DNA from: OCS155 cluster bacterium AG-349-E07 | GTDB taxonomy: Bacteria; Actinomycetota; Acidimicrobiia; Actinomarinales; Actinomarinaceae | DNA: 64,000 bases | Assembly: GCA_003281085.1 (NCBI GenBank) | Contig: QCCZ01000001.1 | Coordinates: forward strand, 27,493 to 91,492 | Direction of reading: 5' to 3' | Shown: positions 18,616 through 47,578 of the stretch, piece after piece | How the letters are laid out: each line of letters begins with the position of its first letter | Numbering within the stretch: position 1 is the stretch's first letter | Made by a program: the position numbers and the translations under genes | Notes under the pieces: model-generated | The model's database searches: none | Seen by the model: the letters and a program-made list of their open reading frames with translations, nothing else | Told to the model about the DNA's origin: nothing

Positions 18616-18984
18616 CTAACTATCTTGATTGTCCATTTCAAGTTGTTCTTGTTCAAAACGATTTAATGCTAATAGAAACATTACAAACAATATTGAAGAT
18701 CCGATTAAAAAAGTTATAGGAAGAATTCTTATTTCAAATGCATTTAGTCCATCAATTGAAGCCGGTGCTGGACCTCTTGGTGCGTAAAGAATAAAAAATA
18801 TTGAGTTGATTACGCCCCAACCAAATATTGCTGCTCCAGTAATTAAAAAACCTAGTCTTTTTCCCAGGTTTGTGGCATTTAATAAAAATGTGGAACCAGC
18901 AAACACAATTAGAGAACCTATAAACATTATGATTCCTGTAACTAACAGGTTAGACGAGAGAAGAGATCTCATTATTTCACGCAT
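18616..18984 (-). CDS. Hypothetical four-TM membrane protein, last gene of the Rieske/cytochrome b operon
   Basis: 122 aa. The start overlaps the cytochrome c stop by 8 nt (ATGCGTGA), implying co-translation with the complex. Confidence 0.55.
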   Translation of the reverse strand: MREIMRSLLSSNLLVTGIIMFIGSLIVFAGSTFLLNATNLGKRLGFLITGAAIFGWGVINSIFFILYAPRGPAPASIDGLNAFEIRILPITFLIGSSILFVMFLLALNRFEQEQLEMDNQDS

Positions 18985-20404: not shown

Positions 20405-21268
20405 TTATTCCTCCGTTGTTAATGCAATACAAGAAAGACCTTGTGGGTACTTGACTGACATCCCAGGTGCTCTTGGAGATTCAATTATAGTTCCAGTATC
20501 AATAATTAATCTTCCAGATACATTTGCTACGTTGAATCTATCTAAATTTCTTGGAGCTGGACCAGCAAAATATTCACCAACCATATTATATTTTGATCCA
20601 TGACAAGGACATTCAAATCCTTGAGATGAGTTACACCATGGAACTCTGCATCCGAGATGAACGCATCTTTGATAAACAGCCACTAATCCATCTGTAACAG
20701 TTGAACCTGAGGCAAACTGAGAATTAGCTGCTGCAGATTCACTAAGTGGAAGAATATATGCTCTAGCTGCAGGAATAAATGCAGGTATAACAGAACCATC
20801 TGCTTGAAATATTTGGTTTTTTATTTCTTCAATTGATCCAGCATCAATTTTGGAACCAAAACCACCTGAGACTTTTGGCCATATAAAACCTAGATAAGAG
20901 ATAAGTTGTATGCCTGCAAAAGCACCAAATGAAATTCTTAGAGCTTTAGTTAAAAACTGTCTTCGGTTTATACCTATTTCTTCTTCAGATAGCTCCTCAT
21001 ATATTTCTTTTTCTTCTAATTTAACAGTACCGTCAGATGGAACTTCTTGCTCTTGTTCTTCATCAATAATGGTTTCTGTCTCACCTTTTGGTAATTCTGG
21101 CTCGAGAAAATTTGTTGCTGATTTATCTTCTTTTAGTGCTTTCTTTTCAACGTTTTTTTTCCAATTGAGATTTTTAGGACCTCGTCCTGTGACAATCACT
21201 ACAATTCCAATAATTCCTAATAACCCAACTAAAGCAAACCCTGCAAACGATAACTCAACTAAGGTCAT
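20405..21268 (-). CDS. Rieske [2Fe-2S] subunit
   Basis: CVHLGC...CPCHGS Rieske boxes. An N-terminal TM helix and an acidic linker precede an internal Tat-like motif (NRRQFLTKAL). Confidence 0.9.
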   Translation of the reverse strand: MTLVELSFAGFALVGLLGIIGIVVIVTGRGPKNLNWKKNVEKKALKEDKSATNFLEPELPKGETETIIDEEQEQEVPSDGTVKLEEKEIYEELSEEEIGINRRQFLTKALRISFGAFAGIQLISYLGFIWPKVSGGFGSKIDAGSIEEIKNQIFQADGSVIPAFIPAARAYILPLSESAAANSQFASGSTVTDGLVAVYQRCVHLGCRVPWCNSSQGFECPCHGSKYNMVGEYFAGPAPRNLDRFNVANVSGRLIIDTGTIIESPRAPGMSVKYPQGLSCIALTTEE

Positions 21269-22044
21269 TCGAAGTGTATCCAGTCAAGCAAATCATCAAA
21301 CCATATTCCATCAATCCATGGATACGTCCAGTTCCATCCTGGTCCTCTGAAAAGCACACCAATAATGGTCAAAACTCCGGCACCCGCTAAGAAAAAGGTA
21401 TAAAACATAATTGCAAATTTTCTTTTAGAAGGATGAGTTTCTGGATTTCTATCAATATAAGGAAAGGCCATCCAAAGTACTACGCCTAAGACTAGTGGAA
21501 TCATAACACCTGCTATTTGTGGATCCCAATAAGATAATAATTCTTGCAATCCCAAAAAGTACCAAGGAGCTTTTGCTGGGTTAGGTGTAACGTTTGGGTT
21601 GGCTTCTTCAAGCAAAGGTGCTTGTAATATTGCTGATAATAATATTAAGAATGCTGTCATTGCCATAAGAGAAACAAACTCTGGAAGCATTAGGTGTGGC
21701 CAGGTATTTACTTTATCAACTGGTTCAGCTACTGGCTTCTGAATTGGTTTAGCTTTTACAACCGTAAGAAGTCGTTGGGTTACTTTTACCTCAGGCGCAA
21801 AATCTACTTCTTCGGGTGTGTCAGTCTTTGAGGCTGCAGGTGCAGGTGTTTCAGCAGCAGGTGCAGGTGTTTCAGCAGCAGGTGCAGGTGTTTCATCAAT
21901 AACTTTTACTTCTGGTTCTTTGGCAACAACTGTTGGCTCTGTTTCACCTTTCATTTCAGCTAACGCTTGCTCAACACTAATTCCTAGTGCTTTAGCTCTT
22001 GCTTCTGCGGATCTAATTAATAAATGTTCTGGGATATCTACCAT
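21265..22044 (-). CDS. Cytochrome b C-terminal part (subunit IV-like) with N-terminal module and Pro/Ala repeat linker
   Basis: Three TM helices and a Qo-site PEWY-equivalent (KAPWYFLGLQELL). About 100 extra N-terminal residues carry RSAEARAKALGISVE plus (ETPAPAA)x3. ATGA overlap with the Rieske gene. Confidence 0.8.
   Translation of the reverse strand: MVDIPEHLLIRSAEARAKALGISVEQALAEMKGETEPTVVAKEPEVKVIDETPAPAAETPAPAAETPAPAASKTDTPEEVDFAPEVKVTQRLLTVVKAKPIQKPVAEPVDKVNTWPHLMLPEFVSLMAMTAFLILLSAILQAPLLEEANPNVTPNPAKAPWYFLGLQELLSYWDPQIAGVMIPLVLGVVLWMAFPYIDRNPETHPSKRKFAIMFYTFFLAGAGVLTIIGVLFRGPGWNWTYPWIDGIWFDDLLDWIHFE
21836..21895. repeat. In-frame tandem repeat, 21-bp unit x about 2.9 (encodes ETPAPAA repeats on the minus strand)
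   Basis: GCAGGTGCAGGTGTTTCAGCA is repeated at 21836, 21857 and 21878 (the last copy is partial). Confidence 0.9.
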
Positions 22045-22053
22045 AATTGTTTC

Positions 22054-22827
22054 CTATAACGGTCCTGAGATTCCGCCATCTTTACGAACTCTCCAAAAAT
22101 GAACAGCCATAAAAATAACAATGATAAATGGTAAAAAGAGCACGTGTAGTACATAAAACCTTAATAATGTTGCAGTTGTAGCTTCAAGACCGGCGAAGAG
22201 ACCGAATTTAGCTTGCGCACCGATAACAGGCGTGTAGCCAGCCATATTACCTCCTACTGTCACAGCCCATATTGCTAATTGATCCCACGGTAATAGATAT
22301 CCTGTAAATGAAAGTAGTAAAGTTAGGAGCAAAAGAATAACTCCTATAACCCAGTTAAATTCTCTAGGTGCTTTATATGCGCCATGATAAAAAACTCGTG
22401 ACATGTGAAGAAAAACTACTAGAACCATCAAGTGTGCTCCCCAACGATGCATGTTCCTAACTAACGAACCAAATGCAATACTTGTTTGTAGGTTTTGTAT
22501 GTCTACATAAGCAAGTTCAGTTGGACGAAAATAAAACATCAACCAGATACCAGTAATAGTTAAAACAATAAATAAGAAGAAGCTCAATCCACCTAAGCAT
22601 AATGTGTAAGATAGGCGTACTCCGTGCCTCTTTACTTTTACAGGATGTAAGTGATACAAAACATTGTTCATAACAACATATGATCTATTTCTAGGACTAT
22701 CTACATACCCTTTTCTGAATGGTGAACCAGGACGGAAAATACTAGACATTAATTTTCCGCCTCTAAAGCTATCAGCAGCACTGATTCTTGCTTCTTTAAT
22801 CTTGTCTCTTAAAGATAATTTCTGCAT
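22054..22827 (-). CDS. Cytochrome b6-type subunit (four-helix N-terminal half of cytochrome b)
   Basis: His pairs have b6 spacing (HRWGAHLMVLVVFLH, HVLFLPFIIVIFMAVH). Also PREFNW, TGYLLPWDQ and a b6-like C-terminal end RKDGGISGPL. CLGG conserves the Cys that binds heme ci in b6f and Firmicute complexes. Confidence 0.9.
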   Translation of the reverse strand: MQKLSLRDKIKEARISAADSFRGGKLMSSIFRPGSPFRKGYVDSPRNRSYVVMNNVLYHLHPVKVKRHGVRLSYTLCLGGLSFFLFIVLTITGIWLMFYFRPTELAYVDIQNLQTSIAFGSLVRNMHRWGAHLMVLVVFLHMSRVFYHGAYKAPREFNWVIGVILLLLTLLLSFTGYLLPWDQLAIWAVTVGGNMAGYTPVIGAQAKFGLFAGLEATTATLLRFYVLHVLFLPFIIVIFMAVHFWRVRKDGGISGPL

Positions 22828-22836
22828 TATGTAATT

Positions 22837-23283
22837 TTAAAGCCTTCCATATATATATCCATGTCTGTCACTTCTTTGACCAGAATCTTCATCCCATGGA
22901 GCTTGGTAGATGCCATTTTCAACTGCTTGGTCTGCTAGAGATCCTGCAAACTTTCCAAGTGAAATAACTCCAGTAGGACACCTATCTACACAAAGTGCAC
23001 ATCTTGTACAAGCGTCCTCATCAACAACAAAAAAACCAGGTTCCTCTGAAGCATCAGGAGACTCTACATTTATTGAATCTTCAATAGCGTCTACAGACAA
23101 ATAATGAATACACTTCCATGGACAAATATCTACACATCCTTCACATAGAATGCACTCAGATTCATCTATATGTAAAAACTGTTTTGGTCTAACTCGGGAA
23201 GCCACTTTTTCTGCTTCAACCATTGCTAGATTGTATTTTTTTTCAAACTCTGGCATCTCTATAAGAACTTCTGATTTAGGCAT
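22837..23283 (-). CDS. 2x[4Fe-4S] ferredoxin-domain protein encoded inside the cytochrome b operon
   Basis: CILCEGCVDICP and CTRCALCVDRCP clusters. The ORF track extends to 23352, but the ATG at 23283 overlaps the upstream stop by 8 nt (ATGCCTAA) and is the more likely start. Confidence 0.8.
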   Translation of the reverse strand: MPKSEVLIEMPEFEKKYNLAMVEAEKVASRVRPKQFLHIDESECILCEGCVDICPWKCIHYLSVDAIEDSINVESPDASEEPGFFVVDEDACTRCALCVDRCPTGVISLGKFAGSLADQAVENGIYQAPWDEDSGQRSDRHGYIYGRL

Positions 23284-23869
23284 CTTGTTCCACCCTAACA
23301 ACCTCTTTTCCATAGTCGGAAATTCTAGATTTTGATTTTTCAACTTTATCATTTATATCTTGAATCAGATAAGCAACTACTAAGCCTGCTATTAAAAAGT
23401 TTGTAGAAATACCTAACTGAATTAAATCTTTAAGTGCAGCAAAACTTAACCCAATTTCATTGTTCAAGAATAATATTGGTGGGAATTGAATAAACTCTCT
23501 TTGACCAGTCCATTCAAGAGGACCCTGAGATAAGTTAAGCCATTCTGAAGGTACAATACCCAACAAAATAGACATTTCGATCCAAGTAAGGAAAGCAAAA
23601 TAAGTAGCTTTAGCCCAAGTTAATTCTTTGTCATTCCAGACAATCAAGACAAGACCCAGTAGTAAAAGCTGACTTGCACCAAAAGCAATTAGCTGACCTA
23701 TTGTTTGTGGTAACCAGCCTCTAGGAATCCAATTAAAATAATCAATAACTTCGCCTTTTGGAAATCCTGCAAAGTGTGCGATGATAACTCCAATTGTCAT
23801 CCCTCCTATACCAGAGACAATTGAAATTAAACCTATTCTGTATCTAAATTTATAAATTGTATAAATCAA
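23276..23869 (-). CDS. Hypothetical polytopic membrane protein, first gene of the Rieske/cytochrome b operon
   Basis: 197 aa with about five TM helices. Translationally coupled to the ferredoxin gene. No motif recognised. Confidence 0.55.
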   Translation of the reverse strand: MIYTIYKFRYRIGLISIVSGIGGMTIGVIIAHFAGFPKGEVIDYFNWIPRGWLPQTIGQLIAFGASQLLLLGLVLIVWNDKELTWAKATYFAFLTWIEMSILLGIVPSEWLNLSQGPLEWTGQREFIQFPPILFLNNEIGLSFAALKDLIQLGISTNFLIAGLVVAYLIQDINDKVEKSKSRISDYGKEVVRVEQDA

Positions 23870-24014: not shown

Positions 24015-25406
24015 ATGAAATTAAAATTGATTCCAAAAAACGAACAGGAGCTTTCAAAACTTTTTGTTCTAATTTTTCCATTAACCCTTTTGTTGTCATC
24101 ATCTACATCTTTTCTCAGAGATGCTTACTTTACATTTGCTAACTTAATCCCAAATAACAAAATTTTTAACTATGGATTTCTAGACACACTTTACAATCAA
24201 GCAACCTATGGCCTGCTTTTTGCTACATGCGTCTGCTTATCTTTCACTTATTTATTTTCAAAATCTCTTGGAAGAATTGCAGTACTTTTTCCGCTTTTGT
24301 TTCTGACATTATTAGGTCTTGTTGGTACAGAATTTTTAGACCTTCTTTTCAGCTTTTTTTATCAAGATAGAATTAATTTAACAGGAAATAGTTCGTTACT
24401 AATTATTCTAAAAATACTTGTTGGCTTTGGATTGTTTGGCCTAGCTTCATTAAATTTATTAGCTAAAAAAGAAAGTTCAATTTTTGCAAGTGCTCAGTTC
24501 ATATATGGTGCAATAGTTTTTTATTTTATTTCACTAATTGTATCTCGTTCAGAATTAGTTGTATTTACTGATTCTTTGATGATTGCTTCGCTCCATAATT
24601 CAACACATATATATGTGGGTGTATCATTTGTTTTTCTTGCTATTGTTCATTTTTTAATGACGAAACCTTTAGGGGCAACTCTTTTTAATAAAACGCTTAC
24701 AGCAATTACATTTTGGGGTTTCTTGTTTCTGCTTCCATGGACAAACTTTAAGTATTACTTTGGATCTATAATTCCCAATTGGCTTGAGAATGTATCTATC
24801 TATCTTTCACTAAGTTTATTAATTCCTCTTCTTGCATTTTCAGTAAATTATGTAAAAACAATACAGACAAAAGAAGATGAGGGTAATAAGTCATCTGGTT
24901 TAATGAGCTTTTCCGTTATTTTATTTTTAATTACTAATTTACTTCACATTATTTCTAGCTTTGAAAACATACTTCCATTAGTTGGACTGACTAATTTTCA
25001 ATATGTAATAAATCAGGGATATATTGGATCTTTAATTTTTGCTACAATTTCATTTGTCTATTATCTCATTCCCAAGCTTTTTGGAAGGTCAGTCAGATAT
25101 TCAAGACTTGAGGATTTAATCTTTTCCGGGTTTAAGTTTTTATATCCAGCTCTACTAATTAACAATTTTCTTATTGGAGTAAATTCTGGATATTCTTGGA
25201 ATGCTGGAGCAAATGCTGGAAGTCCCACAATCTACGGTGAAGGGTTCAGTATATTATGGAGTGTTGTAAGTATTAACTACTCTGCTAATACTTTTATTTC
25301 ACTTTTGCTAATGACGTTATCGTTTTTATTCTTTATTTCAGTCGTAAGATCAATTAGTTCTGGTGATGTAACAACAGTTGAAGAAATGGTTTTTAGCAGT
25401 GAGTGA
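24015..25406 (+). CDS. CcoN-like (C-family heme-copper oxidase subunit I-like) polytopic protein lacking most canonical metal-ligand histidines
   Basis: 463 aa with 12 or more TM helices. Segments align by eye to CcoN: LYNQATYGLLFA (cf. LHTNAVIFAF), LHNS (cf. GHNA), ITFWGF (cf. VHFWAL), WTNFKYY (cf. GPHHLHY), INQGY (cf. GHVHA), YYLIPKLFGR (cf. YHLVPKVFGR). The whole protein has only 4 His. Confidence 0.55.
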   Translation: MKLKLIPKNEQELSKLFVLIFPLTLLLSSSTSFLRDAYFTFANLIPNNKIFNYGFLDTLYNQATYGLLFATCVCLSFTYLFSKSLGRIAVLFPLLFLTLLGLVGTEFLDLLFSFFYQDRINLTGNSSLLIILKILVGFGLFGLASLNLLAKKESSIFASAQFIYGAIVFYFISLIVSRSELVVFTDSLMIASLHNSTHIYVGVSFVFLAIVHFLMTKPLGATLFNKTLTAITFWGFLFLLPWTNFKYYFGSIIPNWLENVSIYLSLSLLIPLLAFSVNYVKTIQTKEDEGNKSSGLMSFSVILFLITNLLHIISSFENILPLVGLTNFQYVINQGYIGSLIFATISFVYYLIPKLFGRSVRYSRLEDLIFSGFKFLYPALLINNFLIGVNSGYSWNAGANAGSPTIYGEGFSILWSVVSINYSANTFISLLLMTLSFLFFISVVRSISSGDVTTVEEMVFSSE

Positions 25407-26199
25407 TTTAGTAAATAAAGTAGCTGAATTATTAAACGCACCAGTTGACCTTGTGCAGAGATCAGCAGAGGCACGAGCACAGGCGTCTGGCGTCTCTGTT
25501 GACGATGTATTAAATTCATGGGCTGGTGGAGAGAGTGTTGCTGCAAGTTCAGCACCTGCACCGAAAGAAGAAGCCCCTGTTGAAGAAGTAAAAGAGGAAG
25601 CTCCTGTTGAAGAACTTGAGGATAATGTAGAGGAAACAACTGAAGTAGAAGTTGTCGAAGAAAAAGAAGCTCAAGACGTTATTGAGGAAGTTGTTGAGGA
25701 AGTTGTTGAGTTAAAAAATGAGAGTTCATTGGCGTTTATCAGTGGCGTCTTGTTAATTGGAATATTTACTTTTATCTTTGCCTTTGTAATTCCAAAGAAT
25801 CAATCAATAAGCGCAGTTGAAAGCTCTCTAAACAATTCAGTAAGTATAACTAGTGAAGTATTGAGAGGGGCAGAGATATATGGTGAACTAAATTGTCAAT
25901 CGTGTCACACTCAAAACGTAAGAACTTTAATTCCTGATACTCAAAATGGTAAAGTTCTCAAAAACAAATACGCAAATGCAGCACTTATTAAAAATGTAGG
26001 TACTATTCGCTTGGGACCCGATCTCTCAACAAATGGTACAAGAGAACCAACTAATAATTCCCAATGGCTAAAAAGATATCTAACTGACTCCTCTTCTGTA
26101 AATAGGGATATTCCACACCCAAACTATGGATTTCTAGACGACAATGATTTGGAGTACCTCGTAACCTATTTACTATCATTAGGAGAAGTAAATGAGTGA
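25399..26199 (+). CDS. CcoO-like membrane-anchored monoheme cytochrome c with N-terminal repeat module
   Basis: Likely GTG start at 25399 (GTGAGTGA overlap with the upstream stop; the ORF track starts at TTG 25378). GAEIYGELNCQSCHTQNVR, RLGPDLS, WLKRYL and LVTYLLSL follow the FixO/CcoO pattern. One TM helix. Confidence 0.7.
   Translation: MSDLVNKVAELLNAPVDLVQRSAEARAQASGVSVDDVLNSWAGGESVAASSAPAPKEEAPVEEVKEEAPVEELEDNVEETTEVEVVEEKEAQDVIEEVVEEVVELKNESSLAFISGVLLIGIFTFIFAFVIPKNQSISAVESSLNNSVSITSEVLRGAEIYGELNCQSCHTQNVRTLIPDTQNGKVLKNKYANAALIKNVGTIRLGPDLSTNGTREPTNNSQWLKRYLTDSSSVNRDIPHPNYGFLDDNDLEYLVTYLLSLGEVNE
25400..25614 (+). repeat. Direct repeat copy 1 (215 bp, identical to 26193..26407)
   Basis: Base-by-base comparison of the two stretches shows no mismatch. 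Offset is 793 bp. It covers the upstream stop, the start codon and the first 70 or so codons. Confidence 0.95.
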
Positions 26200-27133
26200 T
26201 TTAGTAAATAAAGTAGCTGAATTATTAAACGCACCAGTTGACCTTGTGCAGAGATCAGCAGAGGCACGAGCACAGGCGTCTGGCGTCTCTGTTGACGATG
26301 TATTAAATTCATGGGCTGGTGGAGAGAGTGTTGCTGCAAGTTCAGCACCTGCACCGAAAGAAGAAGCCCCTGTTGAAGAAGTAAAAGAGGAAGCTCCTGT
26401 TGAAGAAGTAAAAGAGGAAGCTCCTGTTGAAGAAGTAAAAGAAGAAGCCCCTGTTGCAGCTTCTGTATCAACTAAACAAGTTAAAAAATCTGTTTCATTT
26501 ATTAATGAGACTATGTCTATCAAAACAAACTCAGATACGATTTTGCCTAAGTGGCTAAACTTTAGTTTTGTAATTATTCCATTATTTATACTTATTGGTC
26601 TTATTAGTTCCTCAAATACACAAGAGTGTGGCGAAAGAGGAATGCTAGACGTAGATAGAAAATCCCAACAGGCTGTTAATTGTGATGGATCACCTTACGA
26701 AGGAAGGGGCGTTGCTGCTACAAATACAATCAATTACATAGCAGTAGGTCAAGAAGTTTATGCAGGAGCAGGTGCTTGTGCTGGCTGTCATGGTGGAGGT
26801 GGAGGTGGAGGTGTTGGACCTGCATTTACCGGCGGTGCTTTATATACAACATTCCCAACATGCGCTGATCATGCAAAGTGGATACAACTAGGTTCTGCAG
26901 GATGGCAGGCTGAGGTTGGTCCTACATACGGAGCTGAAAATACTGTCTCGATTGGTGGTATGCCTGGTTTTCAAGGAAAACTCACTGAAGATGAAATTTA
27001 CGCAGTTGTAGTATTCGAGAGAGTTGTTTTTGGTGGTGGAGATACCGAAGAAGTGTTAATAGATTGTGGATTGCTAGAGACTGAAGAAGAGGAAGAAGAA
27101 GTAACTACAGAGGCAGTTAGTACTTCTCCTTAA
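26192..27133 (+). CDS. Membrane-anchored monoheme class I cytochrome c with N-terminal repeat module and acidic tail
   Basis: CAGCH heme motif followed by a Gly run. GGMPGF supplies a candidate Met ligand. One TM helix and a C-terminal ETEEEEEEV tail. ATGAGTGA overlap with the upstream stop. Confidence 0.8.
   Translation: MSDLVNKVAELLNAPVDLVQRSAEARAQASGVSVDDVLNSWAGGESVAASSAPAPKEEAPVEEVKEEAPVEEVKEEAPVEEVKEEAPVAASVSTKQVKKSVSFINETMSIKTNSDTILPKWLNFSFVIIPLFILIGLISSSNTQECGERGMLDVDRKSQQAVNCDGSPYEGRGVAATNTINYIAVGQEVYAGAGACAGCHGGGGGGGVGPAFTGGALYTTFPTCADHAKWIQLGSAGWQAEVGPTYGAENTVSIGGMPGFQGKLTEDEIYAVVVFERVVFGGGDTEEVLIDCGLLETEEEEEEVTTEAVSTSP
26193..26407 (+). repeat. Direct repeat copy 2 (215 bp, identical to 25400..25614)
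   Basis: See copy 1. Identity ends where copy 2 continues with additional 27-bp units. Confidence 0.95.
26363..26455 (+). repeat. In-frame tandem repeat, 27-bp unit x about 3.4 (EAPVEEVKE)
   Basis: Units start at 26363, 26390 and 26417, with a partial unit at 26444. Copy 1 of the module (25570-25614) has only about 1.7 units. Confidence 0.9.
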
Positions 27134-37370: not shown

Positions 37371-37444
37371 GGGCGCTTAGCTCAGTCCGGCAGAGCGCTT
37401 CCCTTACAAGGAAGAAGTCACAGGTTCAAATCCTGTAGCGCCCA
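37371..37444 (+). tRNA. tRNA-Val (anticodon TAC)
   Basis: Cloverleaf folded by hand: acceptor GGGCGCT/AGCGCCC, anticodon stem CTTCC/GGAAG with loop CTTACAA, T-arm ACAGG-TTCAAAT-CCTGT. CCA is not encoded. Confidence 0.9.
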
Positions 37445-37861
37445 CAAGGGTTTTTCAGAAATGCACCTTGTAAAAGACACTATAAAATTTTAGAAAAGTT
37501 ATCAAGAAAATAGTGATAAAAATACTATGAAAGGTAAAGATATTAGTGCGAAAGAAATATAAATTAAGAAACTAATTATCAATAAAATAATTGCACCAAT
37601 AAAGATTTTGTTCGCATTCATAAAAAATTATTTTACAACTAGTTTCTTTTTTTCATAAATTGTAAAGTTCAAAGAAAAAATAGGGCGAAGTAATGTTGGG
37701 CTATTGCAATGGGGATTTCCTGGAAATAAATTACGTGGGGAATATCTTATTAATGAAAGAGCACAAAGCTAAACAGTTCTGATTATTAGTCTATTGATTA
37801 ATTATTTAACTGTATCGTAACGAAACTTCGTTTAGAATTATAAAACAGGAGCTATTAATTT

Positions 37862-39940
37862 ATGAACAGGAAAGTTTCATTTTTTGTAATTTTTTTATTA
37901 ATAATGATTTCTTGTGGTGGAGAAACAGAACAAACTATTTCAGAGACGACAACTTCAACAATTTTGGATACGACCTCTACATCTTCGAGCACTACAACGA
38001 CAATTGTTGAAATAAATGAAAAAAATGAACAAAAATGTCCAGAGGATGATAACAGTAATATTGATTTTTCAAAAACAAAAAATGTTCAACTGTTTTTAAA
38101 TAAGTATGGTTTTGATGCAGGTGAGCCTGATGGAATTCCTGGCAATCAAACAGTTGAAGCTATAAAAGAGTTCCAAGCCTATGCGGGTTTAAGTGTTGAC
38201 GGTGATGCAGGACCTAATACAATTGCAAAAATGAATTCATGGACAGGCTGTGAAGAGAAAATTAATGATTATATTAAGCAAACCACTACAACAACTGTCG
38301 CAAGTTCTGAATCTAGCAATGAAAGTACAAGCACTACTTCAACTACAAGTACAACAACCACGACTATTCCACAAAGCCTGTATGTGCAAAATAATTTTGG
38401 TTTTATGCCAAGCTTGTCTCTTAAAAATAATGAAATTGTTAGTATATTTAAAGGACATAGCGATGGTAATTTGGTTTGCGGTACACCTTACTTTGGTGAT
38501 CTTCCTACAAACACTTTAAATTATTTTTCTAACTCTATGCCAACTGCTCAAACAGTAAGTAATAGTCCCTTTACTAAATCTGAGTTGTCTACAAAAATAA
38601 ATGTTAACTCAAATGCTGAAATTGAGATACAAGTTATTGGAAATGGTGATACTAATTTTAAATTTTACTTTATAAAACCTTTTGATAATCAATTTATAAT
38701 CTTAAATCCTAGCAATATAGTTTCTTCTGCTGGTCTTACAACGGCTACTTTCAAAAAAAATAACCTAGATAATGGTGCGTGGTTTTATGGATTTGCAGAA
38801 AATAGCAGCGGAGAGATTGTAAAAGCTTCTGGAAATAGGGAGTTCATCGTAGGTGATGCAGGTGGAATGACAAATGCAGATTCAAACGAAATAGAAACAA
38901 TTATCATAACAAAAAACGGTAAAAATATTACGCAAGGTGAAAACTTAAGCTCTTCTGACAAATTGTCAATTATGTATATTACAAAAAGTATTTATGACAA
39001 TAGAGATAACACACAAACAACTATAAACAGTGAAACTGACACCATTACGTTGAAAAACGATAGTCAGGCAAATGTTGGAAATATTCTTCTAATAAATAGA
39101 GAGCTTATGTTTGTAAACTCAAAAAATTCTAACAATTATACAGTTACTCGTGGGTATTTGAACACAGAAATAAAAGAGCACTTGGCTGGCTCTTCAGTAA
39201 GAGTAATAGAGGACTCATCAAGGGAAGGTTTAAAGAGCAATTTCGGTTATGCAGTAATTAGAACCGAAAAAGGTTTTAAATTTCAAATTCCTCTAGGTCC
39301 AGAACTTAGTAGCAATGAATTCTTGTTATCTGGATGTCCAAACGATAGATATTTATTAGAAGAAATAACAACTTTTTCATGGAGACAAAGTGGATCTTCT
39401 ACAGTTGTCAATAGTTCAACAAAAAATACCGTAACTTCATTACTTGATAAGGAATTCGTCATTAACACCAATAAACAATATCTCTCCCCAAATTTAATTG
39501 GTAAAGATTCAGATACTGGAAATTTTTTAATAGAGGGTCCAAGGAATAAAGTGCTAAGTCTAAATGAAAGTGTAAATTTTAATTTTAACAAGATAGAGTT
39601 AGGCAATTCAGAAATTAAATTTGTAGAAATTAATTTTAAGATGCTTCCCCTAGAAAATTCAAACAAACTTTCAAGTTCAAAATCTATTTATTTACCGGTT
39701 GTTGATGGAAACTTTAATTTTATTATTGACCTACAACAAAAATCCGAAGTTAAAGTTCCTAATTCTAACAATTGGGAAGTGGGCTATAAATATATTTTTA
39801 ATTACATAACTTTTTTTGATAAAATCTCAAAAACAAGATTTAAAAATGACGGAACAGTTGCTTATGGTCATAATTCAAATCCTGGATCGCATGATGTCTA
39901 CTATTTAGACCAATTTTCATTTATTGTTAATGAAGATTAA
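37862..39940 (+). CDS. Lipoprotein with peptidoglycan-binding (PG_binding_1-like) domain and Ser/Thr-rich linkers
   Basis: Signal peptide with lipobox LIMISCGG. YGFDAGEPDGIPGNQTVEAIKEFQAYAGLSVDGDAGPNT matches the PG-binding repeat. Two poly-Thr/Ser linkers. Confidence 0.65.
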   Translation: MNRKVSFFVIFLLIMISCGGETEQTISETTTSTILDTTSTSSSTTTTIVEINEKNEQKCPEDDNSNIDFSKTKNVQLFLNKYGFDAGEPDGIPGNQTVEAIKEFQAYAGLSVDGDAGPNTIAKMNSWTGCEEKINDYIKQTTTTTVASSESSNESTSTTSTTSTTTTTIPQSLYVQNNFGFMPSLSLKNNEIVSIFKGHSDGNLVCGTPYFGDLPTNTLNYFSNSMPTAQTVSNSPFTKSELSTKINVNSNAEIEIQVIGNGDTNFKFYFIKPFDNQFIILNPSNIVSSAGLTTATFKKNNLDNGAWFYGFAENSSGEIVKASGNREFIVGDAGGMTNADSNEIETIIITKNGKNITQGENLSSSDKLSIMYITKSIYDNRDNTQTTINSETDTITLKNDSQANVGNILLINRELMFVNSKNSNNYTVTRGYLNTEIKEHLAGSSVRVIEDSSREGLKSNFGYAVIRTEKGFKFQIPLGPELSSNEFLLSGCPNDRYLLEEITTFSWRQSGSSTVVNSSTKNTVTSLLDKEFVINTNKQYLSPNLIGKDSDTGNFLIEGPRNKVLSLNESVNFNFNKIELGNSEIKFVEINFKMLPLENSNKLSSSKSIYLPVVDGNFNFIIDLQQKSEVKVPNSNNWEVGYKYIFNYITFFDKISKTRFKNDGTVAYGHNSNPGSHDVYYLDQFSFIVNED

Positions 39941-39942
39941 TA

Positions 39943-41133
39943 ATGGTTAATATAAAAAAGGCACCATTCTATATTTTGACGTTTGTACAAACTTTATTTT
40001 TTTTGCCTTTTTTTTTACAATCAAATATTGGGTCTGACTGGGATGCCTACTCACTAATTGGGACTTATTTAATATTTGAAGAAAGTGGTCAATATTTTCC
40101 TTCAAGACCTCCTGGTTTCCCAGTCTATGAATTGTTAGTCGGCTTCATATCGAAGTTCTCATTTTTAGGTATAGAAAAATCTCTACTACTACTTCAGTAC
40201 ATAATTATGATCTCATTAAATTTTTTAATTTATCTTTTTTTTCAAAAAAGAAAAGATTCTAATATTTTAATTTTTATAATAATTCTTTTTTCTCCAATTT
40301 ATTTAATCTCAAGTTTTACAGTAATTGATTACACATTTGGAGCACTTTTTGGATTTTTGTCCATTTACCTAGCCCAATATGGCTCAAAAAAATATCGATT
40401 GTTTATTCCTTTATTATTAGCAATATCAATTGGTGCAAGGCTATCAAACATTGTATTTTTAATCGCAACTTTAATTTCTTTGAATCAAAAAAACATCAAA
40501 CTTGCAAAACTGTTTAATACTTTGCTTTATACATTTTTTTTAAGCATATTATTTTATACTCCAACTCACCTAAATTTATTTAAGTATTTAAAAAATCTTG
40601 GATATAAAACTTCAGAACTTGTGTGTATTTTAAATTTAACAAATATTGACCACACCCTATATGATCGAATAGGTAGATTTATTCTTAAACAAATCAACTA
40701 TATGGGTTTTATAGCCTTTGTTATTTTTTTAATAGCTATTATCATCTCAAAAAAACAAATTCAACAAAAGCACTATCCTCTTGTAGTAGTTTTTTTACTT
40801 TTTGAATTGAGTTTTTTAAGACTGCCTACTGAAGAGGGTCATTTATTGCCTGCATTTATAGCGTTTATGTTAATAATTAAAGATTTTAAATTTCATAATA
40901 AATTTTTAAATTTAACAATTTTATTTTTAGTAATTTCTAGTTTTTTTGATTTAAAATTCTATACAGTTGATGTAGTAGATAGTGCTTCAACAGCTGAACT
41001 AGGAGTTTATCCAAGTAAAGGCTACTTAATCGAAGAATATGAATTAAGAGAACAAGTTGTTAATAAAAATTATCATTATGAAAATTCTAAAATAACATTA
41101 ATAGAAGCCTGGGCTGAAGGTTGCCCAAATTAA
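39943..41133 (+). CDS. GT-C fold membrane glycosyltransferase-like protein (ArnT/PMT-like)
   Basis: 396 aa with about 10 TM helices. The first loop has RPPGFPVYE, as in GT39/GT83-type enzymes. Confidence 0.5.
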   Translation: MVNIKKAPFYILTFVQTLFFLPFFLQSNIGSDWDAYSLIGTYLIFEESGQYFPSRPPGFPVYELLVGFISKFSFLGIEKSLLLLQYIIMISLNFLIYLFFQKRKDSNILIFIIILFSPIYLISSFTVIDYTFGALFGFLSIYLAQYGSKKYRLFIPLLLAISIGARLSNIVFLIATLISLNQKNIKLAKLFNTLLYTFFLSILFYTPTHLNLFKYLKNLGYKTSELVCILNLTNIDHTLYDRIGRFILKQINYMGFIAFVIFLIAIIISKKQIQQKHYPLVVVFLLFELSFLRLPTEEGHLLPAFIAFMLIIKDFKFHNKFLNLTILFLVISSFFDLKFYTVDVVDSASTAELGVYPSKGYLIEEYELREQVVNKNYHYENSKITLIEAWAEGCPN

Positions 41134-41201
41134 ATGAATAAGTATTTAATTTTTTAAAAATAATTGTGTTTATTTATTGAGGGCTATTTATGATTTAAAT
41201 A

Positions 41202-42389
41202 ATGGATAAAAATATAAATTTTCTAGTTTTTGGAAGATTTCCAACTGAAAGAGCTTACGGTGTTCATGTTGTTTCAAATGCAAAATCTTATCAAAATTTT
41301 GGAAAAGTTAAAATAATTTACCCAACTACCACTAACTCAAAAACAATAGATAGTAACCCAGAAGAATATTTTTCGAGAAGCGATGGCATAGTTTTTGAAA
41401 AAATAGACTTTTACGATATTACAGACAATTTATTATTTAAATTATCGCCCAGTTTTTTAAAACAATTTTTATGGTTATTATTTACGTACATATTTGGAAA
41501 AAAAGTTTCAAAAAATATACCAAATAATAATAACGAAATTTTATGGTCTACAAGTTCTGTATTGTTGTATTCAGCATCTAAAAAAAATCATCAGTTAATT
41601 TTTGAGCTACATGGTAGAGCAAGAAAAATTCAATCTTATTTTTTAAAAAAATTGTACAAGAAAAATTATTTCAGAAAAATATTTATTTCAACTTCAAAAT
41701 TTGGTACTGATGATTTACATAATCGTGGTATTAAAAACAATTTACTTTTCATGCCAAATGGTGTTGATACTGATTTATTTAGACCAAAAAACCCAAATGA
41801 TTCATACAAGGATAAATTGAATATCGGCTATGTAGGTCAATTACATACTTATGGAATAGAAAAAGGAATTACATTTTCATTAAGTGCTTTGGATGCCGCT
41901 ATAAATGAATTAAAAAATTCACCTCAATCTGAAAATATGTACAAAAATATTATTTTTACAGTTGTCGGTGGAACTGATGAGGAACATAAACTAATAGATG
42001 ATTTTAAAAATTTTGATACTGTGTTCTTTAAAAATACAAATCAAGAAAATGTAGCTAAAATTTTACAGTCAATTGATATTGGAATTGTACCGTATCCTAA
42101 GGAAGAGCACATCGCTAAATATTCTTCGTCCTTAAAGCTATTTGAATACATATCTTCTGGAGTAGCAGTAATTGCTTCAGATGTTAAAGCTAATCAAGTA
42201 TTCGATAAAGACATTGGAATTGAATTTTTTGAAGCAGAAAATTTTGAAAGTTTAAAAAGAAAATTTAAATATTTTTTAAATAAGAAAAATTCACATCATC
42301 TAGCAGACTTGGCAAAATTAAATGAAGCTTATCGAGATAAACTATCATGGGGTTTAAGAACAAAAGAAATTTTAAAAAATCTTGAATAA
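41202..42389 (+). CDS. GT4 glycosyltransferase
   Basis: The C-terminal domain has an EX7E-like region (SSSLKLFEYISSGVAVIASD), and NGVD precedes it. Confidence 0.7.
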   Translation: MDKNINFLVFGRFPTERAYGVHVVSNAKSYQNFGKVKIIYPTTTNSKTIDSNPEEYFSRSDGIVFEKIDFYDITDNLLFKLSPSFLKQFLWLLFTYIFGKKVSKNIPNNNNEILWSTSSVLLYSASKKNHQLIFELHGRARKIQSYFLKKLYKKNYFRKIFISTSKFGTDDLHNRGIKNNLLFMPNGVDTDLFRPKNPNDSYKDKLNIGYVGQLHTYGIEKGITFSLSALDAAINELKNSPQSENMYKNIIFTVVGGTDEEHKLIDDFKNFDTVFFKNTNQENVAKILQSIDIGIVPYPKEEHIAKYSSSLKLFEYISSGVAVIASDVKANQVFDKDIGIEFFEAENFESLKRKFKYFLNKKNSHHLADLAKLNEAYRDKLSWGLRTKEILKNLE

Positions 42390-42391
42390 TT

Positions 42392-42465
42392 GCGCCTGTA
42401 GCTTAACTGGATAGAGCATCTGACTTCGGATCAGAGGGTTGGGGGTTCGAGTCCCTCCAGGCGTG
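42392..42465 (+). tRNA. tRNA-Arg (anticodon TCG)
   Basis: Acceptor GCGCCTG/CAGGCGT (G1-U72 wobble), anticodon stem TCTGA/TCAGA with loop CTTCGGA, T-loop TTCGAGT. Confidence 0.85.
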
Positions 42466-42469
42466 CAAA

Positions 42470-43615
42470 TTAAAAAGAATTTAGTTTATTAATAATTTTT
42501 TCAACTCTATTTTCATAACTATATTCTTTTATTTTTTCTATATCAAAATCTATTTCTTCTCCTAAAATTTTGATTGATTCTAAAATACCCTTTTTTATTG
42601 AGCCTGAATCATCATCAATAAACACTGATTTTTCGTAATCAAATCTCTTATTTGCTTCAACATTAGAGCATAAAACAACAAGCCCTGCTCTTATATACTC
42701 AAAAAATTTCATAGATGAGGAAAAACTGTTTACATGATGTGTGTTTGGCAATGGTATCAAACCAATGTCTGACCTAAACAGTTCATAATAAAAATCTTGT
42801 GAAGGAATTCTATTGTGAATTTTGATACTGTCGTTTATATTTTTTGTGTAAACAAATTTATCTAATAATTCTTTTTCATCCTTACTTGAACAATAAATTG
42901 ATAAAGTACAATTTTGTAATTCATTTTTTGTAACAAGATCATTAAAAACGAGAATAATTTTTTCCAGGTTTTTACTCTCTCCTGATATATCCAATGAGCC
43001 CCCAAAAATAAATCTTGTTAATTCACTATTTTGTTCTTTTTTATGTGTTTCTATTTCAGAAAATAGCTTTTCATCATACCCAGTCTCTAGATAAACGGTG
43101 TTATTTTTATCCACTCCTAAACTTTGTATTACTTTCTCAATATATGGAGTAAGAACAACAAATATAATTTTTTGATTTTTTTTGATTGAGTGTCGAACAA
43201 GTAATTTAGACATTCTTGTAATTTGATGTACTTCGTAGACAATTTTGTTTTGATTATTTCTCGTAGTGAAAAGAATATAAGGCGATCGGGTATATAAGAT
43301 AAAATTATTTTTATACTTTTTTAAATAATTTTTTACCCTCTTGGCAAATAACATATGATTAAAAATGTAAATTAATTTATTTAATAATGTTTGGCTTTTG
43401 TATTCGTATTTTTTTGTATGTTTAATTTTTGTTAATTTGAATTTATTGTTTATTTTGTAAAATTCTTCAAAATTTTTACTTGTTTTTTTTCTATCTGGGT
43501 AAACAAGTTCTACATCGATTTCTTTATCAATAAAATTATTTATTGTAGAAATAGATTGAAATGTATTTGTCCTGTAGTCAGGAAAAAATTGATAAGTTGC
43601 ATATATTATTTGCAT
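42470..43615 (-). CDS. GT4-like glycosyltransferase
   Basis: C-terminal SSSMKFFEYIRAGLVVLCSN parallels the EX7E region of the 41202 gene. 381 aa. Confidence 0.6.
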   Translation of the reverse strand: MQIIYATYQFFPDYRTNTFQSISTINNFIDKEIDVELVYPDRKKTSKNFEEFYKINNKFKLTKIKHTKKYEYKSQTLLNKLIYIFNHMLFAKRVKNYLKKYKNNFILYTRSPYILFTTRNNQNKIVYEVHQITRMSKLLVRHSIKKNQKIIFVVLTPYIEKVIQSLGVDKNNTVYLETGYDEKLFSEIETHKKEQNSELTRFIFGGSLDISGESKNLEKIILVFNDLVTKNELQNCTLSIYCSSKDEKELLDKFVYTKNINDSIKIHNRIPSQDFYYELFRSDIGLIPLPNTHHVNSFSSSMKFFEYIRAGLVVLCSNVEANKRFDYEKSVFIDDDSGSIKKGILESIKILGEEIDFDIEKIKEYSYENRVEKIINKLNSF

Positions 43616-43699
43616 GCAATTTAATGGTAATTCATTATTTAAAAAACATAAGAAATTTTTAATTTATACTTAATTAAAAATTGTTCTAAAGTACTTATA

Positions 43700-44542
43700 A
43701 TGCAAGGTGATCCAGGTTATTTTGGCCCACAATCGATGATGTGGAAAGTAAATAAAGAAATTACAGTTCTTTTTGGTGGTGCAAGGGCATTACTTATGCA
43801 TGCAGCTCATCCATTAATTGCAGCTGGCGCTAGGCAAACATCTTTTTACCAAAGAGATCCTTGGAAAAGACTAATTAGAACACTGTCTCTGCAAAATTCA
43901 GTAACTTTTGGTACAAAATCTGAAGCTGATGAAAGTGCTCACAGAATAAATAAGCTTCATGAAGTAATCAAAGGTGATGATCCTATTTCAGGTGGATATT
44001 ATGATGCTTTAGATCATGAACAGCTTCTTTGGGTACATGCTTGTTTACAAATTTCTTCAATCTATTTTTATGAAAAAACGGTCAAAAAATTAAGCACAGA
44101 TGAAAAAAATCAGTACCACATTGAAAACATGAAATCTGCAGAGTTAGTTTTAATAAACATAAATAAAATGCCTCAAACTCATGAAGAATTAAAAAAATGG
44201 GTTATTGAAAAATCTAAAGAAAAAAATTATTTGCTATATACAGATGTAGCTAAAGATGTTGAAGAAATCATTGCTGGCGGTCCAGTTCCGACACATATAA
44301 AACCAATTTGGCCTTTCATTGCATTTACAGCGTTTAATACATTACCTAGAGAATTCAAAAATCTATATGGAGTTAAAGAAACTAAATTTAAAATGATTAT
44401 TCTAAACTTCAACTTGAAACTTTTAAAATATACTAGACCTTTTCTTCCACCTTTTTTTAGACTAATTGCACCAGCAAGATGGGCTAAACAAAGAATAGTT
44501 AAAAATCCAAACCTTAAATTTAAAGACAAGGCAAATTTTTAA
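43700..44542 (+). CDS. MpaB/DUF2236 family oxygenase
   Basis: YFGPQSMMWKVNKEITVLFGGARALLMHAAHPLIAAG matches the conserved DUF2236 N-terminal block. Confidence 0.75.
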   Translation: MQGDPGYFGPQSMMWKVNKEITVLFGGARALLMHAAHPLIAAGARQTSFYQRDPWKRLIRTLSLQNSVTFGTKSEADESAHRINKLHEVIKGDDPISGGYYDALDHEQLLWVHACLQISSIYFYEKTVKKLSTDEKNQYHIENMKSAELVLININKMPQTHEELKKWVIEKSKEKNYLLYTDVAKDVEEIIAGGPVPTHIKPIWPFIAFTAFNTLPREFKNLYGVKETKFKMIILNFNLKLLKYTRPFLPPFFRLIAPARWAKQRIVKNPNLKFKDKANF

Positions 44543-44562
44543 AATTACTATATTATTAAGCC

Positions 44563-44886
44563 ATGACCGATCAAAATAATTGGGAAGAGATGTCAGATGA
44601 CATTGCCGATATTTCTAAAAAAATTAAAAACAATATTTCAGGAGATGAAAATATTGATGATTTAAAAGATTCATTAATAAATATTAAAGAAAATGTAATG
44701 AACACATTTAATAAACTTGCTGAAATTGTTGAAAATACTTTAAATGATGAGGAAGTTAAGAAAGATACTTTAAATATTGTAAATAAATTGCGTGATGAAA
44801 TTTCAGATATTGTTGACTCCACTAAAGATAAAGTATCAGATGTTGTTAATTTTGATGATTATTTAAAAAATTCTGAAGAAGAATAA
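44563..44886 (+). CDS. Hypothetical acidic helical protein (107 aa)
   Basis: Asp/Glu/Asn/Lys-rich ORF with no TM helix. No motif recognised. Confidence 0.35.
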   Translation: MTDQNNWEEMSDDIADISKKIKNNISGDENIDDLKDSLINIKENVMNTFNKLAEIVENTLNDEEVKKDTLNIVNKLRDEISDIVDSTKDKVSDVVNFDDYLKNSEEE

Positions 44887-44930
44887 ATTGTTCTTAATAT
44901 ATCAAGTAGTGTATTATTCAATGAGTAACT

Positions 44931-45003
44931 GGGTCGGTAGCTCAATCGGCAGAGCAGGAGCCTTTTAAGCTCAAGGTCGTGGGTTCGATTCCCACCCGAC
45001 CCA
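44931..45003 (+). tRNA. tRNA-Lys (anticodon TTT)
   Basis: Acceptor GGGTCGG/CCGACCC, anticodon loop CTTTTAA, T-arm GTGGG-TTCGATT-CCCAC. Confidence 0.9.
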
Positions 45004-45036
45004 CAAATTTTTATCGAATTACTCTATTATTAATTT

Positions 45037-46734: not shown

Positions 46735-46774
46735 AAATTAAATTTTGAAAACTAGAAATATGTATCATTGATAT

Positions 46775-47380
46775 ATGAATATTCATAAAACAGCAGTTTT
46801 AGATAAGTCGGTTTATTTAGGAAAAAATGTTGAGATTGGTGCATTTTCTCAAATACTAGGCAATGTACAAATAGGCGATAATGTAAAAATAAAAAGTAAC
46901 TGTGTTATCGGAGCTGAGGCTGACCAGCCTAGGGTCGATAGGTTAGGTGGCCAAAATGGAAGTATTGTCATTCAAGATGGTTGTGTTATAAAAGATTCAG
47001 TCATTATTTCTAAACCAACTCTAACTGAAGTTACAAAAATTGGTTCGAACTCTTACCTAATGAGTGGTGCATACATAGCTCATGATTCTATTCTGGGCAA
47101 GAATGTAATAATTTCTCATGGTGCAAGACTATCAGGATATACAACTGTTGATGACTTTTCGAATATAGGGGCTAACGCAACAACACATCAAAAAACGACT
47201 ATCGGAATGTGTGTTATGGTTGGCGCAAATTCATTTGTCAAGGGTGAGCTTAATTCTGGTTTAATTTATGTAGAAAAAAATAAAATTCTTGGTATTAATA
47301 AAATCGGGATCGAAAATGCTAAGTTGTCTGACAAAGAAAAACAAAGAATTATTGACATAGCAAATAAATATATTAATTAA
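46775..47380 (+). CDS. Left-handed beta-helix (hexapeptide-repeat) acyltransferase, LpxA-like
   Basis: Repeated [LIV]-G-x4 hexads (VYLGKNVEIGAFSQILGNVQIGDNVKIKSNCVIG) and an HDS motif, as in the LpxA/acetyltransferase family. Confidence 0.7.
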   Translation: MNIHKTAVLDKSVYLGKNVEIGAFSQILGNVQIGDNVKIKSNCVIGAEADQPRVDRLGGQNGSIVIQDGCVIKDSVIISKPTLTEVTKIGSNSYLMSGAYIAHDSILGKNVIISHGARLSGYTTVDDFSNIGANATTHQKTTIGMCVMVGANSFVKGELNSGLIYVEKNKILGINKIGIENAKLSDKEKQRIIDIANKYIN

Positions 47381-47421
47381 TCCTTTTTATTACTCTACTT
47401 ATATTAAAATCTAGAAATATT

Positions 47422-47496
47422 GGGGGCGTGGTGAAGTCTGGAGTTCACGCCTGCCTGTCACGCAGGAGGTCGCGGGTTCGAATCCCGTCGTCCCCG
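47422..47496 (+). tRNA. tRNA-Asp (anticodon GTC)
   Basis: Acceptor GGGGGCG/CGTCCCC, anticodon stem CCTGC/GCAGG with loop CTGTCAC, T-arm GCGGG-TTCGAAT-CCCGT. Confidence 0.9.
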
Positions 47497-47502
47497 CTAC
47501 TT

Positions 47503-47578
47503 GGCCAGATAGCTCAGTCGGTAGAGCACTTGTCTGAAAAACAAGGGGTCGGCAGTTCGATTCTGCCTCTGGCCACCA
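47503..47578 (+). tRNA. tRNA-Phe (anticodon GAA), CCA encoded
   Basis: Acceptor GGCCAGA/TCTGGCC, anticodon stem CTTGT/ACAAG with loop CTGAAAA, T-arm GGCAG-TTCGATT-CTGCC, 3' ACCA. Lies 6 nt after tRNA-Asp. Confidence 0.9.

Follow-up and report, generated by a model that had tools for sequence, protein, structure and literature searches.

A small N-terminal module on respiratory membrane proteins of Actinomarinales, with evidence for its homogenization by gene conversion in two adjacent cytochrome genes

We analyzed a stretch of 64,000 nucleotides from OCS155 cluster bacterium AG-349-E07 (Actinomycetota; Acidimicrobiia; Actinomarinales), which corresponds to positions 27,493 to 91,492 of contig QCCZ01000001.1 in assembly GCA_003281085.1 and is referred to here as the window; coordinates given without a locus name are counted from its first letter. 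Two adjacent genes in the window, one for a CcoO-like protein and one for a membrane-anchored cytochrome c, begin with the same 215 nt, and this shared segment encodes a small N-terminal domain, which we call the module. The comparison with related genomes indicates that the two copies are kept identical by repeated gene conversion, and not by a recent duplication or an assembly artefact, and that the module is part of a domain family, not catalogued so far, that occurs on the N-terminal tails of respiratory membrane proteins. We consider this combination the best overall explanation of the data and have considerable confidence in it.

Direct repeat and gene conversion

An earlier note on this DNA, made from the sequence alone, had reported two identical stretches of 215 bp at an offset of 793. 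Direct comparison confirmed that positions 25400-25614 and 26193-26407 are the same base for base, with no further identity on either side. An exact repeat of 215 nt in 64 kb cannot have arisen by chance. The features concerned are the following.

25400 to 25614, plus strand: repeat copy 1, which makes up the 5' end of the CcoO-like gene apart from the first base of the start codon and includes the module plus the beginning of the acidic linker
26193 to 26407, plus strand: repeat copy 2, forming the 5' end of the gene for the membrane cytochrome c
25399 to 26199, plus strand: CcoO-like mono-haem cytochrome c, consisting of module, acidic linker, transmembrane (TM) helix and FixO domain with CQSCH
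26192 to 27133, plus strand: membrane-anchored mono-haem cytochrome c, consisting of module, acidic linker, TM helix and cytochrome c domain with CAGCH
25399 to 25536, plus strand: module type A of the CcoO-like protein (codons 1-46, GTG start), matched by tblastn and profile
26192 to 26329, plus strand: module type A of the cytochrome c (codons 1-46, ATG start), matched by tblastn and profile and modelled with three helices
25565 to 25616, plus strand: 2.0 units of the 27-nt tandem repeat, located in the CcoO-like linker, which is acidic; the direct repeat ends here
26357 to 26456, plus strand: 3.7 units of the 27-nt tandem repeat coding for EAPVEEVKE, located in the cytochrome c linker, which is acidic and predicted to be disordered

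Both copies begin with the second base of a start codon (GTG at 25399 in the CcoO-like gene, ATG at 26192 in the cytochrome c gene), and both start codons overlap the last codon and the stop of the preceding gene as (G/A)TGAGTGA. Relatives have ATG at this position in both genes; the TTG at 25378 suggested by the open reading frame (ORF) finder is therefore not taken as the start of the CcoO-like protein. The right border falls within the 27-nt tandem repeat coding for EAPVEEVKE, which comprises 2.0 units in the CcoO-like gene and 3.7 units in the cytochrome c gene. The repeat has a GC content of 46% compared to 32% for the window. GC-biased conversion is a possible source of this excess, on which we make no claim because it is inseparable from the Ala/Gly/Pro/Glu-rich composition of the encoded protein.

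The comparison set comprised 46 matching genome loci, 45 of them with Actinomarina-type protein matches, which places the window in Candidatus Actinomarina, and contigs spanning both genes were available for 34 genomes. The module heads both genes in all 34 of these. Paralogue pairs are 100% identical over codons 2-46 (135 nt) in 20 of the 34 genomes and at least 97% identical in 25. Where the two modules of a genome are identical, the exact tracts measure 154-246 nt, and all of them begin at the start codon and end in the linker; across the spanning genomes identity upstream of the tracts amounts to only 0-4 nt. Between genomes, the modules of orthologous genes share a median identity of 74% (range 62-100%), compared to a median of 100% for paralogues within a genome, and the best match of 53 of the 68 module copies is the paralogue of the same genome. 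This closer relationship of same-genome paralogues points to concerted evolution, which a single recent duplication cannot explain. A different picture was found in the clade L005-L009, where paralogues share no more than 76-80% identity and each copy clusters with its orthologues instead of with the other copy of its genome. Near-identity was also seen between tandem modules inside one gene in L130 (95% over 176 nt). As judged from these comparisons, the copies are most probably kept identical by repeated gene conversion.

The duplication itself is older than the compared lineages, as indicated by the two-copy state of all spanning genomes and by the presence of modules on three of the four carrier types in high-GC relatives. 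Based on this distribution, the two-copy arrangement appears to be as old as the order Actinomarinales. The earlier note had left the choice between recent duplication and ongoing conversion open; the comparative data support the latter, and the order-wide two-copy state is incompatible with the former. Taken alone, the 100% identity in the window would fit a single duplication of the 5' segment in this genome without continuing conversion. Given two copies in every spanning genome and a median of 74% between orthologues, yet identical copies within most genomes, such an explanation would demand that the same duplication, with unchanged borders, took place recently and independently some twenty times, and we regard it as highly improbable.

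We additionally considered whether the identity is held by selection on the nucleotides, for example because an RNA element at the two gene starts serves translational coupling or regulation. The stop/start overlap is present in both copies and conserved in every genome, and this, together with the elevated GC content of the repeat, would be in line with such an element. Between genomes, the proportions of nonsynonymous (pN) and synonymous (pS) differences in the module are 0.13 and 0.58, respectively, a ratio of about 0.23. The paralogues of the clade L005-L009, which has escaped homogenization, show pS of 0.53-0.65 and pN of 0.08-0.11; the ranges over all non-homogenized genomes are 0.37-0.65 and 0.01-0.11. 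Since the copies differ mainly at synonymous sites where conversion has lapsed, selection on the protein is purifying, and with synonymous sites free and the protein conserved, exact identity elsewhere can be taken to reflect recent conversion. The pN/pS data gave no sign of constraint on RNA or DNA at the repeat, and an Rfam search found no family at the locus. In addition, modules occur at internal sites of multi-module proteins, where no gene starts. An origin of the identity in nucleotide selection is therefore very unlikely.

An assembly artefact would have to consist of one copy placed twice or of two diverged copies collapsed to a consensus. Short-read assemblers are confused by exact repeats longer than the k-mer size, public assemblies hold chimeric fragments that start with the module (P0205, P0157, P0142, P0189), and an extra tandem unit on L021 and L127 could represent an assembly loop. 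The two copies head different genes, however, each of which needs its copy for a start codon and an N-terminus, and the arrangement recurs in single-cell genomes. Near-identical copies were also found on single contigs of 0.9-1.0 Mb (L004, L027, L032, L034), whose record names suggest long-read assembly. Among contigs with AACY accessions, which we take to be Sanger-read assemblies, paralogues are 100% identical in L077 and L101 and 98.5% identical in L050, L083, and L084. We thus give an artefact very little credence. Many short-read and single-cell contigs end in or beside the module, as expected at an exact repeat. That the repeat breaks or scrambles short-read assemblies at this place (contig ends, chimeric ORFs, and possibly loop duplications) concerns annotators of these genomes.

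Some observations weigh against conversion as a complete account. Of 28 copy pairs on metagenome contigs long enough to include both, only 3 are identical; we attribute this small number to the breakage of such assemblies at exact repeats, which makes the sample a biased one. Judging by these pairs, homogenization is not universal, and many natural lineages do not seem to be fully homogenized. Furthermore, a few real differences may have been smoothed away in the consensus of short-read assemblies, which would account for part of the exact identity there.

The tandem extra unit mentioned above, a second copy of the stretch between the two repeats, occurs on two independent contigs. In L021 (3614-5105), the unit is the ccoO-like gene alone, and its two copies show 8 differences, none of them beyond the first 69 nt. 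In L127 (5001-6944), it consists of the ccoO-like gene and a small ORF, again in two copies. Such units are the product expected from unequal crossing-over between direct repeats; an assembly loop is also possible. The small ORF encodes a Cys-rich protein of 78 amino acids (7 Cys) and lies between the ccoO-like and cytochrome c genes (L004 6782-7018; L127 5740-5976 and 6708-6944). It is present in some Actinomarinales genomes, in which the repeat spacing is about 970-1025 nt, and is missing from the window; inside the repeat, its stop codon and the start codon of the following gene overlap. The 78-aa protein gave no Pfam match.

An uncatalogued domain family on respiratory proteins

AlphaFold2 predicted three helices in the module (residues 3-12, 16-30, and 34-41), with a mean predicted local distance difference test (pLDDT) score of 88 for the module alone. 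In the model of the full-length cytochrome c, the module, with its first helix at residues 2-12, reaches 93-95, residues 45-112 stay below 50, and a TM helix at residues 120-140 precedes the cytochrome domain. The module is thus confidently predicted to be a 46-residue three-helix bundle on a disordered acidic tether. This is in agreement with the order of parts that the earlier note had read from both cytochromes, i.e., a shared N-terminal domain, an acidic Pro-rich linker and one TM helix. The net charge is -4 for module type A and -3 for type B (see below), and -9 and -20 for the linkers. The consensus of 203 distinct modules reads LLxxVAExxG(M/I)PExL(V/L)xRSAEARAKAxGx(S/T)V(E/D)(E/D)VLAEWAG, in which conservation is 90% or higher at each of the positions P, R, S, A, A, R/K, A, G, L, and W/M.

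No model of Pfam-A 2025 or NCBIfam 20.0 covers the module, including that of multi-module proteins, and the precomputed Pfam annotations of homologues list cytochrome c domains only. A Foldseek search of the PDB with the pLDDT-88 model returned only designed helical toroid or repeat proteins, none below E 0.89. Profile matches in the PDB to designed repeat proteins (8vd6, dTor) were rejected since they rest on the generic helix-capping string G-(I/L)-S-V-(D/E)-E and not on homology. A match to a known family, which the earlier note had named as the finding that would speak against a new domain, was consequently not obtained in Pfam, NCBIfam, or the PDB. Literature searches with the motif string and on Acidimicrobiia with cbb3 oxidase or supercomplexes found no description of the module, and the published account of Actinomarinales genomes does not mention cytochromes (PMC7771536).

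The pattern of helix, Gly-x-Ser turn and helix had been likened to HeH/SAP/Rho_N motifs, which raises the question of a nucleic-acid binder tying respiratory complexes to the nucleoid or to RNA. This resemblance found no support. Neither the modules (E<=10) nor the multi-module proteins (E<=0.1) matched Pfam SAP, Rho_N, LEM, or HeH, the fold search gave only designed helical repeats (E>0.8), and three helices are predicted. Moreover, the negative charges of module and linkers are unfavourable toward polyanions. Nucleic-acid binding is unlikely because of this charge, and taken together with the other results we judge it extremely improbable.

The module is not confined to the two adjacent genes, as further features of the window show.

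21265 to 22044, minus strand: PetD-like subunit IV, encoded in the divergent operon and belonging to a complex with a split cytochrome b
21937 to 22044, minus strand: module type B (codons 1-36) at the N-terminus of subunit IV, without the first helix of type A
21836 to 21895, minus strand: 21-nt tandem repeat, 2.9 units, ETPAPAA, in the linker of subunit IV, found by repeat scan and translation
18616 to 18984, minus strand: small membrane protein of 122 amino acids at the end of the bc operon, without a module in the window
24015 to 25406, plus strand: CcoN-like polytopic membrane protein, the last codon and stop of which lie inside repeat copy 1

The diverged module copy that the earlier note had placed on subunit IV was borne out: type B is recognized by the same profile as type A and shares 44% protein identity with it. 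At the DNA level the two are only 49% identical, which indicates that type B is not being converted.

An exhaustive profile search over 1.84 billion cluster representatives yielded 438 proteins at E<=1e-3, 167 of them at E<=1e-10. We inspected the best 150 of the 438, of which 96, mostly fragments, could not be classified. The classified carriers comprise 16 homologues of subunit IV, 15 of the window cytochrome c, 8 CcoO-like proteins, 2 homologues of the 122-aa bc-operon protein, and 5 members of a polytopic membrane family (P0160, P0233, P0241, P0249, P0254; hereafter P0160 type), one of which has a C-terminal cupredoxin. All classifiable carriers among these best 150 are thus respiratory-chain membrane proteins, with the module on the N-terminal tail, and in 80 marine metagenome loci the only carriers were cytochrome c, CcoO-like protein, subunit IV, and the P0160 type. 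According to these assignments, the module probably represents a so far uncatalogued domain family that is distributed among Acidimicrobiia-type Actinomycetota and occurs on five or more kinds of respiratory membrane protein. The earlier reading that three respiratory subunits share the module holds; the limit to three does not, since the family is wider and often comes in tandem arrays. What counts against a purely respiratory family is that non-respiratory carriers may exist beyond the classified hits, that is, among the 96 and below the best 150.

A fourth carrier in Actinomarina was observed in L047 (5348-6472), a polytopic membrane protein of 374 amino acids with a type A module, whose DNA identity with the type A copies found in other genomes is 84-87%. 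The gene of this protein immediately follows the COX2-COX1-COX3-COX4-CtaG genes of a caa3-type oxidase, and the cupredoxin-bearing relative of the protein is also near caa3 genes. The number of modules varies with the lineage: streamlined Actinomarinales have one per protein, and high-GC relatives (labelled Acidimicrobiia, Actinomycetia, or Actinomycetota where named) have 2-7, with Pro/Ala-rich linkers in between. In single-module proteins the module is always at the extreme N-terminus before the first TM helix. P0121 with 7 and P0130 with 3 modules are 47-51% identical in their C-terminal parts to the 122-aa protein of the window. As these high-GC homologues bear modules, the 122-aa protein seemingly lost its own during streamlining.

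Several database hits were set aside. Four extra carriers on short contigs were rejected as probable chimeras, namely a short-chain dehydrogenase (P0205), a MotA/ExbB-like protein (P0142), ribosomal protein uL3 (P0189), and a ParB-like protein (P0157); one of the four is a hybrid of two half modules, one of type B and one of type A. When the 46-residue module profile was run in a word-indexed search, only fragments of at most 81 amino acids came back, many of them adapter-ended or frameshifted, and this search was replaced by the exhaustive one. Among public metagenome ORFs beginning with the module (P0004-P0118), many end in LSLIHISEPTRP, VSYTHLTLPT, or CLLYTSPSPRD, peptides that are presumably translated sequencing adapters, and others are frameshifted in the repetitive linker on long-read contigs, so that the locus is a source of numerous annotation artefacts.

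Neighbouring genes and a CcoN-like protein apparently without metal ligands

On the plus strand, the CcoN-like, CcoO-like, and cytochrome c genes are followed by a gene for a 144-aa membrane protein. The minus-strand set encodes a 197-aa membrane protein, a 2[4Fe-4S] ferredoxin, a cytochrome b6-like protein, subunit IV, a Rieske protein, a di-haem cytochrome c, and the 122-aa membrane protein. The CcoO-like protein scores 38.7 bits with Pfam FixO (cut-off 29.6), contains CQSCH and has a single hydrophobic TM segment at residues 109-132; profile, CxxCH and one N-terminal TM helix all agree with a FixO-type CcoO. It is a distant FixO member because it falls far under the NCBIfam equivalog cut-offs. 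Subunit IV scores 36 bits with Pfam Cytochrom_B_C (cut-off 20.7) and is located directly downstream of the Cytochrome_B gene (22054-22827), so that both profile and position after the cytochrome b6-like gene identify it as a PetD-like protein of the b6f type.

The CcoN-like protein (24015-25406) stays below the cut-offs of both Pfam COX1 (24.4 bits versus 34.8) and TIGR00780 (36.8 versus 583). It is nevertheless homologous to the cbb3 CcoN of PDB entries 9g6b and 3mk7, with E about 1e-7 to 2e-7. None of the six canonical His ligands of haem b, haem b3, and CuB is kept: in the alignment to the PDB proteins, Y-Y stands in place of the HH pair of CuB and N-Q in place of the haem HxH motif. The window protein has 4 His in total, full-length orthologues have 1-4 in Actinomarinales and 7 in L048, and no alignment column has an invariant His. 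The protein therefore appears to be a haem-copper-oxidase fold without metal ligands that is conserved across the order and its high-GC relatives, and our results draw attention to a conserved cbb3-like unit whose catalytic subunit seems to have lost all of them.

The high-GC relatives have the synteny of the window, but the CcoN-like and FixO parts are fused in one protein of 632-641 amino acids without a module (L048 8075-9997; L130 8095-9993; L131 8071-9996). An ancestral fusion of this kind would have been split in the Actinomarinales lineage by a copy of the neighbour's 5' segment, which would at once have provided the ccoO-like gene with its own start codon, the upstream stop and the N-terminal module. 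The start and module of the CcoO-like protein may thus have arisen by gene fission through capture of this segment. Against an event particular to Actinomarinales stand the module-bearing CcoO-like proteins P0230 and P0245 from high-GC lineages, because of which the capture would be older than the order or recurrent.

Further observations concern the surroundings of these genes. The bc-type operon starts (22837-23869, minus strand) with the 197-aa membrane protein, which is conserved and belongs to no family, followed by the soluble 2[4Fe-4S] ferredoxin (22837-23352) and then by the split cytochrome b. Every relative examined has this set of genes, which represents an unusual subunit complement for a bc complex. 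In the cytochrome c gene, a GGTGGA hexamer repeat of 3.7 units (26792-26813, plus strand) encodes a run of seven Gly right after CAGCH. The genomes of Actinomarinales are among the most streamlined known for free-living organisms, with 32.5% GC and a median spacer of 2 bp (PMC7771536), and the GC content of the window (~32%) agrees with these published traits. Between 40000 and 64000, it drops to 26-29% compared to 32-38% upstream, and five tRNA genes are located at 37371-47575. This part may be the start of fGI1, a flexible genomic island of Actinomarinales with 28% GC (PMC7771536).

Possible function and comparison with known systems

In CcoO and membrane-anchored c-type cytochromes the N-terminus is inside and the haem domain outside, and the N-terminus of subunit IV is on the n-side. 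By analogy to this topology, the modules should be cytoplasmic. The architecture is that of a folded mini-domain on a long disordered acidic tether, placed at the N-terminus of subunits that belong to, or are encoded beside, three complexes and an electron carrier, and the module is retained four times in a genome of ~1 Mb. One conceivable role is that of a tethered cytoplasmic docking handle. By binding among themselves or to a single shared partner at the cytoplasmic face, the modules would keep the bc complex, the ligand-less CcoNO-like unit, the caa3 oxidase and the membrane cytochrome c in close association. We put forward this view of cytoplasmic modules as a shared handle that organizes the respiratory chain as a tentative proposal, with the odds somewhat against it; the docking role is read from the carrier set, topology and architecture. 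The variable module number could supply multivalency. In a still more speculative version, a multivalent connector of 1-7 copies would assemble the bc complex, the dead CcoNO-like scaffold, cytochrome c and the caa3 oxidase into a respirasome or membrane patch, and conversion would keep the copies matched.

The main rival to docking is a handle for biogenesis or quality control, i.e., a cytoplasmic factor for targeting, insertion, cofactor delivery, or proteolysis that reads the part of the protein emerging first. The position at the extreme N-terminus ahead of the first TM helix in single-module proteins suits such a role, as do membrane insertion and redox-cofactor assembly as common needs of the carriers, and the near-invariant face with R, S, and R/K suggests one specific partner. 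Arrays of up to seven modules are awkward for a simple recognition tag, however, some carriers have no known cofactor (the small bc-operon protein and the P0160 type), and the loci examined showed no linked gene for a candidate factor. We therefore consider this role rather unlikely. With regard to docking, contacts in known supercomplexes lie, to our knowledge, within the membrane or on its outer side, and the carrier pattern provides the testable hypothesis that respiratory complexes are organized from the cytoplasmic side. The domain family, which is absent from Pfam, NCBIfam, and the PDB, so far marks only respiratory membrane subunits in the marine Actinomarinales and other Acidimicrobiia, a group that is both abundant and widespread.

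Among known architectures, the E2 chains of 2-oxo acid dehydrogenases carry small peripheral-subunit-binding and lipoyl domains on flexible Ala/Pro-rich linkers, which serve docking and reach. The module proteins resemble them in the autonomous domain of about 40 residues, the disordered Pro/Ala/Glu-rich linkers and the variable tandem copy number. In contrast to E2 chains, they show neither a sequence match to E3_binding nor a fold match, and the carriers are integral respiratory membrane proteins. The resemblance to HeH, SAP, Rho_N, and LEM domains is limited to two short helices with a Gly-containing turn; the module has three helices instead of two, is acidic and not basic, and sits on membrane proteins and not on nucleic-acid binders.

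With respect to the respiratory chain, membrane-anchored cytochrome cy and CcoP are known to link complex III and cbb3 oxidase in bc1-cbb3 supercomplexes (PMC7876108, PMC10556555). The membrane cytochrome c of the window likewise has one N-terminal TM helix, is encoded beside cbb3-like and bc genes and plausibly shuttles electrons between complexes. Cytochrome cy and CcoP differ from it in their periplasmic tether and in having no folded cytoplasmic N-terminal domain, and the CcoN-like partner found here is without haem and copper ligands. The order of a CcoN-like gene followed by that of a FixO protein is as in cbb3 CcoN/CcoO, and the CcoO-like protein passes the FixO cut-off and keeps CxxCH. 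Unlike in cbb3 oxidases, the CcoN-like protein is under the COX1 cut-off and has none of the six His, and the CcoO-like protein has the extra module and a very acidic linker.

Textbook cases of concerted evolution by conversion are tufA/tufB of enterobacteria and the rRNA operons. As in these systems, paralogues within a genome are identical or nearly so, orthologues have diverged and the tracts have sharp ends; a recombination by-product between direct repeats can be seen here in the tandem extra units of L021 and L127. In contrast to tufA/tufB and the rRNA operons, only a 5' segment of about 150-250 nt coding for one domain is homogenized, and the genes concerned are adjacent and otherwise unrelated. 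Moreover, the tract begins exactly at the start codon and takes in the upstream stop, and the genome is extremely streamlined. Gene conversion as such is an ordinary evolutionary process, and the unusual aspect here lies in its confinement to the domain-coding 5' segment of two unrelated neighbours. Overall, the locus provides a clean natural example of domain-level concerted evolution under extreme streamlining, with a sister clade in which conversion has stopped as a built-in control.

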